A stretch of 17,671 nt of DNA, from positions 1-17,671 of the forward strand of contig JBBSWJ010000022.1 of the NCBI GenBank assembly GCA_038046345.1. Direction: 5' to 3'. The notes under the pieces are model-generated. The model ran no database searches. It worked only from the letters and a program-made list of their open reading frames with translations, and was not told the origin of the DNA. The DNA is from Nanobdellota archaeon (GTDB lineage: Archaea; Nanobdellota; Nanobdellia; SCGC-AAA011-G17; JACPNG01). This document shows positions 5,750-8,070 of this stretch, in pieces (position 1 is the first letter of the stretch; every line of letters starts with the position of its first letter). A program made the translations under genes and the position numbers.

Positions 5750-6013
5750 ATGCAAGTTGAACTAACTAGAATATCTGAAAAAGGACAAATAGTTATACCA
5801 TCTTCTTTAAGAAAAGAGATGGGAATAAAGAAATCAGACCAGTTTATGGTTTTTGGTGAAGCTGGAACAGTGATATTGAAGAAAATAGAAACTCCAGCAA
5901 TCAAAAAGACATTTGACGAGATTGCTAAGCCATTGCAGCAGGTCGCAAAACAAGCAGGATTATCAAGAGTAGATGTAAAAAAAGCTATCAAAGATGTTAG
6001 AAATGTTGCTTAA
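5750..6013 (+). CDS. AbrB/MazE/SpoVT-family DNA-binding protein (putative VapB antitoxin)
   Basis: TRISEKGQIVIPSSLRKEMGIKKSD is the AbrB signature. SD GGTGA upstream; overlaps the PIN gene start. Confidence 0.9.
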   Translation: MQVELTRISEKGQIVIPSSLRKEMGIKKSDQFMVFGEAGTVILKKIETPAIKKTFDEIAKPLQQVAKQAGLSRVDVKKAIKDVRNVA

Positions 6014-6421
6014 CCTGGTTCTTGACACTAACACGATTGTTTCAGCTTTCTTTTGGGAAGGAAATGAAGCTGAGCTATTTAGAAAAATAGAGCAAGGTAA
6101 GGCAAAGTTGTATATTACGATTAAGATTCTTAAAGAGATTGAAGAAGTGATAAAAGACCAAAATTTGATAAAGTTATGAAGAATGTCGGTTTAACACCAG
6201 ACCAGATTATGCAAAAGATTGTTTCACTTTCTCATTTGGTTATTGCTCCAAAATTGAACATAAAAGTTTGCAGAGATGAAAAAGACAATAAATTCCTTGA
6301 ATGTGCAGAAAGTGTAAAAGCAGATTACCTTATAAGTGGAGATGAAGATTTGCTTTCCCTAAAGGAATATAATGGAATTCCTATTCTGAGAACTTGGAAA
6401 ATATTGCAGTTATTGGAATAA
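6003..6421 (+). pseudogene. PIN-domain toxin (COG1569/PIN_3-like VapC) split by a 1-nt frameshift
   Basis: ORF 5994..6179 carries VLDTN; ORF 6176..6421 carries RDEKDNKFLECA and SGDEDLL. Adding one A to the run at 6152-6155 gives a continuous 139-aa frame reading VIKRPKFDKVMKN. Confidence 0.8.
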
Positions 6422-6424
6422 TGA

Positions 6425-6628
6425 TTATAGTAAATAATCATACTCAATTCTTGTTACAAATGTAAATATCAATACTAATACCCCTAGAAATATTAGTGCA
6501 TAATTTAAAGAAACATCAGCTATAAATCCAACAATTGGATATAGGATAGTTACAACAACTCTTTCTACTAATGAAATCGAAGCTAAAACTGCCAATACCC
6601 CAACTGGGGCTATGAAAGCGATAATATC
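6425..6628 (-). pseudogene. Orphan C-terminal fragment of a membrane transporter, probably MFS
   Basis: An ATG-less frame of 67 codons (DIIAF...ASISLVERVVVTILYPIVGFIADVSLNYALIFLGVLVLIFTFVTRIEYDYLL*) bounded upstream by TGA. The PIVGFIAD segment resembles the loop between the last two MFS helices. Confidence 0.4.
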
Positions 6629-6744
6629 TCATTTCTCTAATCCTTGCGGTTTTAACAATTTCTACCAATACTAAAAATTAAGTTTAGTCACGATAAAAAC
6701 ATTCAAGTTGAAAGAGTGACACTTACTTTACAGCTTAAAAAAAA

Positions 6745-6760
6745 GGAAATACTTATATAA
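6745..6760 (+). promoter_or_regulatory. Archaeal BRE/TATA promoter of the leader-trpS-tRNA-Trp unit
   Basis: GGAAAT-ACTTATATAA. TTATATAA begins 28 nt upstream of the uORF ATG at 6781 but 109 nt upstream of the trpS ATG. Confidence 0.7.
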
Positions 6761-6780
6761 GATAACTACTGCTTGTTTAC

Positions 6781-6828
6781 ATGAAAATTAAACCACAGAT
6801 GGGTGGTTGTCTTTGGCAGCCAAATTAA
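6781..6828 (+). CDS. Putative Trp-containing leader peptide (uORF) MKIKPQMGGCLWQPN upstream of trpS
   Basis: ATG AAA ATT AAA CCA CAG ATG GGT GGT TGT CTT TGG CAG CCA AAT TAA. The ATG lies at the predicted TSS, TGG is at 6814-6816, and the core is GC-rich with alternative hairpins. Confidence 0.55.
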   Translation: MKIKPQMGGCLWQPN

Positions 6829-6861
6829 GCTCTTTTTAGATAGTTTAAACGAGGTTTTAAC

Positions 6862-7932
6862 ATGAATATAGAAGAGAACATGACAAGTGATGCACAAATG
6901 CTCATTGAACGTTTTGGTGCTGAACCAGTTAAAGACTTAAAAGAAATACCTGAGTGTTATACCTTTCAGAAAGGACTTATTTATTCTCATAGAGACTTTG
7001 ATAAGTTTTTTGAGGCACTAAAAAAAGGTAAAAAATGTGCCATAGTATCCGGTTTAAACCCTTCAGGAACATTACATATCGGGCACAAAATTGTTTTTGA
7101 TACCAATCTATTTTTTCAAAAGAAGTATGGTATACCTGTGTTCATTCCATTATCTGAGGATGAAACTTATGTTACCGGAAAAGTTAAGTCACAAAGTGAA
7201 GGTTTACAAAATGCACTTAAGCTAGCCAAAGAGCTGTTAGCATATGGGTTTGATCCTAAGAAAACTTATTTTATTATAGATCAGGTTTACACAAATATTT
7301 ACAACCTTGCTATTAAATATTCTATTGGCACTAATCTTTCTACTATCAAACGAATATTTGGTTATGAGCTTGAGAATAATCCCGGGCTGTTTTTTTATCC
7401 AGTAGTTCAGACTGCACATATTCTCTTGCCTACTGAGTTAATTAAAGCTGAATATATTCTTGTCCCAATAGGACCAGATGAAGATACCCATATCAGAATT
7501 AGCAGGGAGATTGCTCAAAAGTTTAAACTTAACAAACCAGCAATTACTCACTCTGTATTCCTACCCGGACTTACTGGAACTAAGATGAGCGCCAGCAAAC
7601 CAGAGACTGCAATCTTCTTAAGCGACGATGAAAAAACCATCCGAAAAAAAATCATGAGTTCATTTAGTGGCGGACAAGAAACAATTAGTGAACATAAAAA
7701 AAAAGGTGGAAACCCATCTAATGATATTGCATGTATATATCTAAGCAAACTCTTTTACGATGAAAAACAAAGCAATAAGCTTATCAGTGACTACAGTTCA
7801 GGAAAATTATTGAGCAGCGAAGTTAAAGGATTGTTTGCTGATGAGATTATCAAGTTTGTTAATAAGTTTCAAAAGAGCTTGATAAAAGTTAAAAAGAAAG
7901 ACCTTGATAAGTGCATTTTAAAAAATCGTTAA
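6862..7932 (+). CDS. trpS: Tryptophanyl-tRNA synthetase, archaeal/eukaryal type
   Basis: HIGH and KMSAS motifs, YSHRDFD, VPIGPDEDTHIRISRE and FSGGQET. SD GAGGT upstream. Confidence 0.95.
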   Translation: MNIEENMTSDAQMLIERFGAEPVKDLKEIPECYTFQKGLIYSHRDFDKFFEALKKGKKCAIVSGLNPSGTLHIGHKIVFDTNLFFQKKYGIPVFIPLSEDETYVTGKVKSQSEGLQNALKLAKELLAYGFDPKKTYFIIDQVYTNIYNLAIKYSIGTNLSTIKRIFGYELENNPGLFFYPVVQTAHILLPTELIKAEYILVPIGPDEDTHIRISREIAQKFKLNKPAITHSVFLPGLTGTKMSASKPETAIFLSDDEKTIRKKIMSSFSGGQETISEHKKKGGNPSNDIACIYLSKLFYDEKQSNKLISDYSSGKLLSSEVKGLFADEIIKFVNKFQKSLIKVKKKDLDKCILKNR

Positions 7933-7933
7933 T

Positions 7934-8007
7934 GGGCGCATAGCATAATCCGGCTAGTGTGATCGGCTCCAACCCGATTGATCTGGGTTCAAATCCCAGT
8001 GTGCCCG
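7934..8007 (+). tRNA. tRNA-Trp(CCA), intronless, CCA end not encoded
   Basis: Acceptor stem GGGCGCA/TGTGCCC; anticodon arm ATCGG-CTCCAAC-CCGAT with CCA at 7969-7971; T arm CTGGG-TTCAAAT-CCCAG. Confidence 0.95.
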
Positions 8008-8070
8008 CTTTGTGTTTAAGCTTTGAATGAAAGTAAAAAAATTTAACTTTGCTATTAAGGCTTTTTAACC

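Follow-up and report, generated by a model that had tools for sequence, protein, structure and literature searches.

In a tiny groundwater DPANN archaeon, an 81-base leader lies ahead of trpS with a 15-codon mini-gene at its head, and we found that this leader looks like a one-off insertion at the trpS start, not a demonstrated tryptophan sensor. Our main reading, to which we give a probability of about one half, is that the leader is specific to this lineage and came from DNA inserted or duplicated at a trpS start that was once leaderless, with its Trp codon incidental. Positions below are those of the window, which is the whole stretch of 17,671 nt that was analysed.

The predicted trpS transcript starts on the AUG of a 15-codon uORF

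The trpS gene occupies 6862..7932 on the + strand and encodes 356 aa (TIGR00233, 234 bits against a cut-off of 177); two cluster relatives are P0121 (94% identity) and P0122. One nucleotide past the trpS stop codon lies tRNA-Trp(CCA) (7934..8008, + strand), the only tRNA-Trp gene found in the assembly. The best promoter site falls at -30 to -35 in 15 of 22 tRNA genes; tRNA-Trp has no promoter at that distance, and its best site (9.6 bits) is at -46, within trpS.

Using a BRE+TATA matrix trained on 416 upstream regions of the same genome, we found the trpS promoter at 11.5 bits, on the + strand only, with the TATA start at 6752 (BRE GAAA and TATA box CTTATATA, 6746..6759). Scores of at least 10 bits occur at 3e-4 of genome positions. 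With the same matrix, no site exceeds 2 bits between 6760 and 6862, which upholds the earlier note's claim of a single good TATA box and makes this the only credible trpS promoter. The distance from the TATA start to ATG 6781 is exactly 29 nt, the modal leaderless spacing of the genome (115 promoter hits of at least 8 bits lie exactly 29 nt from an ATG, and 261 lie at 26-33 nt). Hence, given this spacing and a trpS that has a Shine-Dalgarno (SD) sequence and no promoter of its own, the 5' end of the trpS mRNA is very probably the AUG of the 15-codon uORF. With its predicted transcription start set on ATG 6781 by the promoter geometry, trpS would therefore carry a leader headed by a leaderless uORF, as had been claimed.

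The uORF itself is as first described: ATG 6781 opens MKIKPQMGGCLWQPN* (6781..6828, + strand), with its one Trp codon at 6814-6816 and TAA at 6826-6828, leaving a gap of 33 nt to the trpS ATG at 6862. The T5 tract is also where it had been placed (6833..6837, + strand), with no hairpin abutting it. The trpS SD, GAGGT (6851..6855, + strand), stands at -11, within the genome's SD peak of -14 to -9. There is no run or enrichment of Trp codons in the uORF, which has one TGG in 15 codons; at least one TGG turns up in 15% of shuffles, and of 98 trpS loci, 38 have a short ORF with a W codon no more than 200 nt away. The uORF is in frame with trpS, and we considered an N-terminally extended TrpRS made by read-through; this was rejected on the stops at 6826 and 6841 that lie between the two and on the orthologues, which have no extension.

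The promoter at 6752 could instead serve a separate short RNA (a 15-aa peptide gene or a small RNA) that ends at T5, with trpS transcribed from an unrecognised weak promoter such as TTTAGATA at 6834. T5 tracts can terminate archaeal transcription, and TTTAGATA lies 28 nt before ATG 6862, a canonical spacing. However, it scores below 2 bits, has no BRE and has a G that is never found at that TATA position in the genome; as a trpS promoter it is ruled out by the matrix score. Moreover, the SD of trpS would be missing from a leaderless transcript. We consider two separate transcripts very unlikely.

Elsewhere in the genome, ATGs of ORFs of at most 30 codons are about 3-fold enriched at promoter +29/+30; some of them may therefore have a function, which speaks against a purely incidental leader. 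At promoter +28 to +31, the genome has further mini-ORFs, which lie upstream of rSAM, GatE, P-type ATPase and unknown genes. The gene downstream of two F-rich mini-ORFs (C19:10487/10503) is not PheRS; its protein has no match in NCBIfam.

The leader is absent from orthologous trpS genes

A conserved uORF upstream of trpS in relatives had been put forward as a check on tryptophan sensing; when this was run, a leaderless uORF leader was found at 0 of 97 orthologous loci. Instead, a promoter lies 26-34 nt before an in-frame start ATG in 79 of these 97 genes (42 of the 47 with at least 50% identity and 37 of the 50 more distant ones), and the nearest orthologues (60-67% identity; L002, L003 and L084) are canonical leaderless genes. 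A 15-codon W12 uORF ahead of trpS in L017 was rejected as a homologue, since it is part of a longer ORF (54 aa) whose end overlaps the trpS start as ATGA.

The idea that other aaRS genes of this genome have analogous leaders did not hold either: a leaderless uORF of at least 4 codons precedes 0 of 15, and about 11 of the 15 are canonical leaderless genes. When the leader was compared by BLAST with its own genome and with 240 genomes of the order, all matches were short, AT-rich and attributable to chance (two inspected), and JGI metagenomes gave no match to a degenerate trpS peptide pattern or to a leader 21-mer.

The uORF start and the trpS start are near copies

We found a direct repeat at the two starts: copy 1 (TTTACATGAAAAT, 6776..6788, + strand) surrounds the uORF start and copy 2 (TTAACATGAATAT, 6857..6869, + strand) surrounds the trpS start, with 11 of 13 positions identical (P~0.003 relative to random pairs of leaderless starts). 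Hence, the near-copy heads point to an insertion or duplication at a leaderless start. From -2 to +20, the uORF head matches the trpS head at M1 in 15/23 positions (P~0.01) and at M7 in 17/23 (6e-4); beyond about 21 nt, the likeness is at background. Tandem duplication of the full 81 nt was rejected, with an ungapped identity of 33/81 (about the top 1.5% of offsets) that is confined to the first ~21 nt.

In our main reading, the old trpS BRE/TATA (6746-6759) would still fire about 29 nt downstream, where the start would now fall on a copy of the gene head (ACATGAAAAT...) and open the 15-codon uORF that runs to TAA 6826. The true trpS start (ACATGAATAT...) would have been displaced 81 nt downstream and would now be served by the GAGGT SD at -11, located in the inserted DNA. 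As with most mRNAs of this organism, ribosomes would probably load on the 5'-terminal AUG, and they would go on to translate the uORF; initiation at trpS would be a separate event at its own SD. The single Trp codon would be incidental, with no sensing of tryptophan.

As to where such DNA came from, the leader may be a copy of a mobile start-codon cassette that lands on leaderless starts, duplicates the start and brings in a mini-ORF and an SD. The flanking duplication spans the start codon, including CATG, the insert measures 81 nt with the SD inside it, its ends show a short terminal inverted match (AAACC/GGTTT), and a second small start duplication occurs in the genome at C11:3995. Against a cassette, the leader is single-copy in its genome and has no look-alike in the 240 genomes of the order or the JGI metagenomes, so we rate this origin as quite unlikely.

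Hairpin B is the sole folding feature beyond chance

Most of the pairings described in the earlier note exist. Helix AACCAC/GTGGTT (6791-6796/6803-6808) closes a 6-nt loop and forms hairpin A (6791..6808, + strand; -7.3 kcal/mol), and the GGTTG/CAGCC pairing is part of an 8-bp hairpin B with a 3-nt loop (6804-6811/6815-6822; 6804..6822, + strand; -9.5 kcal/mol) around the CTT-TGG junction. Between AAGCTC and GAGGTT, 5 of 6 positions can pair, an imperfect match as claimed. The third helix needs correction: TTTGGC/GCCAAA as written has a 1-nt loop and cannot form, but TTTGG/CCAAA with a 3-nt loop is possible.

Compared with dinucleotide shuffles, the whole leader folds no better (z = -0.35), and folding of 6820-6870 shows no stable structure over the trpS SD (-3.7 kcal/mol, z +0.4). 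The leader also has a GC island (53% over 32 nt); 4% of intergenic windows reach this value, and such an island is present in 34% of intergenic segments. A local hairpin as stable as B occurs in 1.75% of random intergenic 81-mers (P~0.02). The features of the leader thus mostly do not exceed chance, and hairpin B is the sole standout, a point against a purely incidental leader. A scan for bacterial-type terminators gave nothing on the + strand and one site on the minus strand, which is the complement of hairpin A. In Rfam, including the T-box, only two tRNAs match at E<=1, and the leader has no match.

A strain variant keeps the 3' half of the leader

Strain variant X9 offers one pairwise comparison, based on low-depth contigs, in which the uORF reads MKIKQQTGGCLWQPN and its ORF, ATG and TGG are kept, with 2 synonymous and 2 non-synonymous codon changes. 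Hairpin A falls from -7.3 to -1.3 kcal/mol in X9 through 6794 C>A and 6804 T>C, which are uncompensated; hairpin B is kept (-8.8 kcal/mol). There are 6 changes in 6775-6804, no difference is listed over 6805-6860 (56 nt), and trpS differs at 13 of about 66 third codon positions. Hence, the 56 unchanged nt argue that constraint acts on more of the leader's 3' half than the SD alone, and a purely incidental leader leaves this unchanged stretch of X9 unexplained.

This conservation could mean that the 3' half, which runs from hairpin B to the SD, acts as an operator or a stability element in the RNA, to which TrpRS or another factor might bind, with no role for the uORF. The E. coli thrS gene is autoregulated by binding of its synthetase, and it is in keeping with such an element that the 56 nt have no listed change in X9 and that hairpin B is both unusually stable for the genome and kept in X9. 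However, the leader does not resemble tRNA-Trp in sequence (local matches reach 5 nt at best), it has no CCA-presenting loop, and it has neither Rfam matches nor homologues. An operator here is decidedly improbable.

A classical attenuator does not fit the leader

The earlier note proposed that Trp-tRNA is sensed by an attenuator with mutually exclusive hairpins. In its classical form, a ribosome stalled at the Trp codon would select a hairpin and so cause termination at T5 or access to the SD. Several features suit this: hairpin B encloses the TGG of a leaderless uORF, helix A overlaps helix B, and T5 and the SD follow downstream. Leader-peptide transcription attenuation of an aaRS gene occurs at pheM-pheST of E. 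coli. In Streptomyces, attenuators have been predicted for trpS2 and leuS (PMC1262725).

Other features speak against it. There is one Trp codon only, and stalling at 6814 would place the two arms of hairpin B under the ribosome, so that no switch would remain. The T-tract has no abutting hairpin, the + strand has no terminator-like site, and the SD region is unstructured. The one stretch that can pair with the SD, AAACC (6790-6794), would not be covered by a ribosome stalled at 6814, and it carries a substitution in X9. Hairpin A is gone in X9 without compensation, the leader as a whole folds at chance level, and the genome has no sister leaders. None of the 97 orthologous loci has a uORF leader, which the earlier note had named as grounds for refutation; we regard the attenuator as extremely unlikely.

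The leader resembles pheM-pheST and the Streptomyces trpS2 and leuS leaders in that a short ORF with the cognate codon precedes a synthetase gene. Unlike them, it has one cognate codon and not a run, lacks a terminator/antiterminator pair and is not conserved, and its host is an archaeon, in which termination has no need of a hairpin. A second likeness is to the leaderless polycysteine sORFs of mycobacteria (Canestrari et al., bioRxiv 10.1101/834739): a leaderless ORF is the first cistron, here as predicted from promoter geometry, and the gene that follows is served by a ribosome-binding site of its own. In the mycobacterial sORFs, however, there are runs of Cys codons, and the stalled ribosome opens a duplex that hides the downstream ribosome-binding site (bioRxiv 10.1101/834739), whereas our leader has neither a codon run nor a structure that sequesters the SD.

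A possible +1 slip site leads to the trpS start

The Trp codon can also be read in another way. We found in the sequence that it is part of a heptamer, CTT-TGG-C (6811..6817, + strand), a look-alike of the prfB +1 slip site CUU-UGA-C. An internal SD-like GGTGGT (6802..6807, + strand) ends 3 nt before the CTT and pairs at 6/6 positions (one G-U) with the genome's own 16S 3' end (...GGATCACCTCCT). The +1 frame has stops at 6782 and 6863 only and is open from 6785 to ATGA, so a shifted ribosome would read 16 sense codons and then a TGA that overlaps the trpS ATG as ATGA (6815..6865, + strand). In shuffles, a W with an open +1 path arises in 4.9%, and one with CTT preceding the W in 0.12%. Among co-directional gene pairs of this genome, ATGA is the most frequent spacing (65 of 488).

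These features would fit a sensor that gauges tRNA-Trp charging through a prfB-like +1 frameshift and so controls trpS, and perhaps the co-transcribed tRNA-Trp too, a reading that we consider unlikely. Translation would start on the 5'-terminal AUG, and scarce charged tRNA-Trp would leave UGG in an empty A-site. The peptidyl-tRNA-Leu would then slip from CUU to UUU at CUU-UGG-C, aided by GGUGGU 3 nt upstream, and the ribosome would read 16 codons in the +1 frame, stop at the UGA in AUGA and reinitiate, so that TrpRS synthesis goes up. With ample Trp-tRNA, it would stop at UAA 6826, 33 nt upstream and too far for coupling. Termination-reinitiation coupling depends on overlapping genes and is lost at gaps of about 20 nt (PMC10666635).

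What favors such a sensor is that one base separates the heptamer from the prfB site, that the order of SD-like element, 3 nt and CUU is the prfB layout, and that the heptamer and an open +1 path would seldom coincide by chance (about 0.1% of shuffles). For a synthetase, regulation in this direction is also the right one. In the X9 comparison, the slip site and the whole +1 path are unchanged, with 6861 C>T preserving a sense codon and ATGA, and the 5' part of the uORF varies freely.

However, the pattern was found post hoc at one locus and recurs at 0 of 97 orthologous loci, the SD-like element is weakened in X9 (GGTGGT to GGCGGT), and the CUU-reading tRNA-Leu was not found in the assembly. 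Ordinary genes also have 20 in-frame CTT-TGG pairs. The depletion of this pair there (O/E 0.51) is common to ATT-TGG and GTT-TGG and is hence not specific to CTT-TGG; we therefore rejected specific avoidance of CTT-TGG in favor of a general xTT-TGG depletion. To our knowledge, no +1 programmed frameshift of this kind is established in archaea.

Known stimulators of +1 frameshifting are hungry codons in the A-site, slippery sequences in the P-site and SD-like elements upstream, and the P-site slip sequence of RF2 is 'CUU U' (PMC2377451). The putative sensor resembles the prfB (RF2) frameshift in having CUU-U in the P-site and a putatively slow A-site codon that would report the activity of the product, with a candidate SD-like stimulator 3 nt upstream (PMC2377451); the yeast Ty1 site CUU-AGG-C is grouped with prfB as a +1 frameshift comparison (PMC2377451). 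Unlike in prfB, the A-site codon would be a sense Trp codon, the locus is unique and its mechanism putative, and the shifted frame would end on the trpS stop/start overlap without continuing into the protein. The leader also resembles ATGA coupling (Huber et al., PMC6728339, PMC10666635), since the TGA of its +1 frame overlaps the trpS ATG; it departs from it in that the overlapping frame differs from the frame opened by the 5' AUG.

Discussion

This locus should not count as the first archaeal Trp attenuator, as the evidence does not carry that claim. If correct, the frameshift hypothesis would describe a new cellular mechanism for gauging tRNA charging, with TrpRS, and perhaps tRNA-Trp, made when charged tRNA-Trp runs short. 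For the organism, our results give a quantified view of strict leaderlessness in a DPANN genome, with the TATA start 29 nt before the ATG. They also suggest how a leaderless gene may outlast an insertion at its start: the old start would be kept as a mini-ORF, and the displaced gene would have gained an SD.

Promoter geometry and the start of the trpS mRNA

The genome to which the window belongs, as contig C22, has 821 kb (GC 34%, completeness 97%). We called 803 long ORFs in it and profiled the regions upstream of them. Where the upstream gap was at least 60 nt (416 genes), TTTAWAW starts concentrate at −32 to −27 (mode −29), with a smaller peak of SD-like words at −14 to −9. Hence, the organism is mainly leaderless, with SD sequences in a minority of genes. 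Using a genome-wide, EM-refined BRE+TATA matrix, we found 261 promoter hits of at least 8 bits 26–33 nt before a long-ORF ATG (115 at exactly 29 nt), with the consensus BRE RAAA and TATA TTTAWAWA starting 29 nt (range 26–33) before the ATG; the same consensus lies 30–35 nt before position 1 in 15 of the 22 tRNA genes. The leaderless architecture of this genome is very regular.

Re-reading the plus strand confirmed the elements described in the earlier note: the uORF MKIKPQMGGCLWQPN* (ATG 6781, TAA 6826–6828), its single Trp codon TGG (6814–6816), a T5 tract (6833–6837), the Shine-Dalgarno GAGGT of trpS (6851–6855, at −11, inside the SD peak of the genome) and the trpS ATG (6862), which opens a 356-aa TrpRS (TIGR00233; stop codon 7930–7932). 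The promoter site at 6752 scores 11.5 bits, on the plus strand only, and lies 29 nt upstream of ATG 6781; just 3e-4 of genome positions reach at least 10 bits. No second trpS promoter was found with this matrix, which nowhere exceeds 2 bits in 6760–6862 and rejects the TATA-like TTTAGATA located 28 nt upstream of the trpS start codon. With no rival site, the claim that the only credible promoter sets the mRNA 5' end on the uORF AUG held, and the prediction from sequence that the trpS mRNA begins there is sound.

One base past the trpS stop codon, tRNA-Trp(CCA) starts on the same strand (7934). It lacks a promoter at −30 to −35, where those 15 tRNA genes have their best-scoring site; its own highest-scoring site, with 9.6 bits, lies at −46, inside trpS in its Lys-rich terminal part. 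It may plausibly be co-transcribed with trpS. Elsewhere the two genes are linked at 2 of ~105 other loci (L005 and L084), arranged differently.

Upstream, a TIGR00305 PIN-domain toxin gene (5994–6421) is split between a 61-aa and an 81-aa ORF, which share an ATGA overlap and cover profile positions 2–54 and 67–115, respectively; it is either frameshifted or a two-piece gene. The ~330 nt that follow (6422–6750) hold no convincing gene; their minus strand has a 56-aa hydrophobic ORF (6425–6595, TTG start) and, in a different frame, ATG 6632, and may be a decayed membrane-protein gene beside the rearranged trpS start.

Orthologous trpS loci and other mini-ORFs

The comparison covered trpS orthologues at 97 loci: relatives within the family or order supplied 29 of them, and GTDB species the other 68; sources label the relatives of this TrpRS Woesearchaeota, Pacearchaeota or Nanoarchaeia. 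A promoter of at least 6 bits lies 26–34 nt before an in-frame start ATG in 42 of the 47 genes with at least 50% identity and in 37 of the 50 more distant ones; loci without that spacing are operon-internal or from other phyla. The nearest orthologues (L084, 67%; L002 and L003, ~60%) are canonical leaderless genes. A leaderless uORF precedes trpS at 0 of the 97 loci, an outcome that the earlier note had itself named as refuting. Among the 15 other aaRS genes of the genome, found via Pfam families, none has a leaderless uORF of at least 4 codons; ~11 have a promoter at −29 to −33, three lie behind an upstream gene or distant promoter, and one has a start that cannot be placed. The leader architecture is real and unusual for the lineage.

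The TrpRS shares 60–67% identity with other families of the order (genomes G025 and G029 and ~45 GTDB species) and only ~35–38% with the TrpRS of all 16 own-family genomes, a pattern from which xenologous replacement of trpS is possible.

Elsewhere in the genome, mini-ORFs at +28 to +31 from a promoter are tRNA 5' ends or the N-terminal piece of a seemingly frameshifted gene, and the remainder precede radical-SAM, GatE, P-type ATPase and unknown genes. At C21:13625–14305, on another contig, a 13-codon ORF MGLICGIDDSGSE stands at promoter +29 and may encode an RNase HII-type N-terminus. A 198-aa ORF begins 42 nt further on, and GPVIGP is encoded in the sequence upstream of it; the gene seems to be either frameshifted or misassembled. 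At C19:10487–10535, two overlapping Phe-rich mini-ORFs at a promoter, MFLNFFVWFFYF and MFGFFIFNFF, directly precede a 517-aa protein that has no NCBIfam match and is not PheRS; the stretch is possibly merely a T-rich spacer.

Origin of the leader

The uORF start TTTACATGAAAAT (6776–6788) and the trpS start TTAACATGAATAT (6857–6869) are identical at 11 of 13 positions (P~0.003 versus random pairs of the genome's leaderless starts). In the stretch from −2 to +20, 15/23 positions of the uORF head agree with the trpS M1 head (P~0.01) and 17/23 with the M7 head (P~6e-4), and the likeness is at background past ~21 nt. With every orthologue leaderless, an insertion at a leaderless trpS start is the simplest history: ~60–70 nt of unrelated DNA would have entered there, duplicating the start region and leaving a stub ORF under the old promoter, and the SD for the displaced trpS would have come with the insert or evolved. 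The insert is single-copy in its own genome, and nothing similar turned up in 240 genomes of the order or in JGI metagenomes; hence, it cannot be called mobile.

A second small start duplication lies at C11:3995–4022, where a promoter-proximal ATG opens MKKHKLH* and the true start of a signal-peptide protein follows 1 nt later (spacing 25 nt), in similar contexts (TAAATATGAAAAA / TTAATATGAAGTA).

Leader structure and strain variation

Folding of the 90-nt leader gave z −0.35 (dinucleotide shuffles); for the region around the trpS SD the value is −3.7 kcal/mol (z +0.4), with no structure hiding this site. Of intergenic windows, 4% equal the GC-rich core (53% over 32 nt), and one intergenic segment in three contains such a window. 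Shuffling the leader yields a uORF with at least one TGG in 15% of cases, and short W-containing ORFs occur within 200 nt of 38 of the 98 trpS loci examined. Hairpin B (6804–6822, −9.5 kcal/mol) is the one structural feature that stands out: just 1.75% of 81-mers drawn at random from the intergenic DNA of this genome contain a local hairpin of equal stability. The rest is mostly not above chance. The third helix, as proposed, would have a loop of 1 nt, with which it could not form.

Among the sequencing runs listed for the locus none is RNA; it is present in DNA runs of three groundwater studies, and one such run, X9, has a variant ~8% divergent. This variant retains the uORF, ATG 6781 and TGG; its listed changes in the leader are at 6775 (G>A), 6786 (A>G, synonymous, Lys codon), 6794 (C>A, P5Q), 6800–6801 (TG>CA, M7T) and 6804 (T>C, synonymous, Gly codon). 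The 6794 and 6804 changes both break hairpin A (6791–6808; −7.3 to −1.3 kcal/mol), and hairpin B is kept (−8.8 kcal/mol). Hence, the proposed pair of mutually exclusive helices is not conserved even between strains. A Trp attenuator built on such a hairpin switch, as first proposed, is very improbable given this loss, the unremarkable fold, the exposed SD and the orthologues; what stands of that proposal is its promoter/uORF architecture.

No X9 differences are listed in 6805–6860 (56 nt), in striking contrast to six in the 30 nt before it. If trpS third codon positions (13 of ~66 changed) are taken to give the neutral rate, 0.2 per site, the chance of no change at 56 sites is ~4e-6, in one pairwise comparison of contigs at depth 2–5. 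At face value, and on this thin basis, the 3' half of the leader appears to be under constraint. The X9 contig over 6820–7060 has twice the depth of that over 6743–6849, so a second haplotype may share trpS and differ upstream of 6820. Four more differences of the variant lie within 15 nt of the ends of the contig and, by a k−1 overlap argument, probably fall in 6743–6757, i.e. the BRE/TATA.

Function of the leader

The best-supported reading (probability about 0.5) is that the leader is incidental or at most generic: the stub would be translated leaderless from its 5' AUG, with termination at 6826, and trpS would be initiated separately by its SD. This leaves the conserved 3' half without explanation. 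That half would be accounted for by a prfB-like +1 frameshift, which we consider unlikely and which has specific sequence features behind it: a ribosome starved of Trp-tRNA would slip at CUU-UGG-C and reach the trpS start, and with ample Trp-tRNA it would terminate 33 nt short of trpS.

Shifting to +1 is stimulated when the A-site codon is hungry, when the P-site is slippery (CUU U in RF2) and when an SD-like element lies upstream (PMC2377451). The uORF 0-frame GGT GGT TGT CTT TGG C is the prfB slip site CUU-UGA-C with a Trp codon in place of the stop, and its SD-like GGUGGU, which pairs 6/6 with the genome's 16S 3' end, lies 3 nt upstream, as does the element before CUU in prfB. The +1 frame is stop-free from 6785 to a TGA overlapping the trpS ATG, and ATGA overlaps are the commonest gene junction in the genome (65/488 co-directional pairs). 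In Haloferax and E. coli, termination-reinitiation functions at such overlaps, and gaps of ~20 nt nearly abolish it (PMC10666635). Hence, slip site, open +1 frame and ATGA coupling could together deliver a starved ribosome to the trpS start. Among leader shuffles, 4.9% have W with an open +1 path, and 0.12% also have CTT preceding W. However, the pattern was spotted after the fact at a single locus, its SD-like element is weakened in X9, and CTT-TGG occurs 20 times in ordinary genes, its depletion being common to other xTT-TGG pairs.

Overall, the locus is best regarded as the product of an insertion at the start site, by which a leaderless stub ORF arose, and slippage of starved ribosomes towards trpS is a testable hypothesis that it provides.
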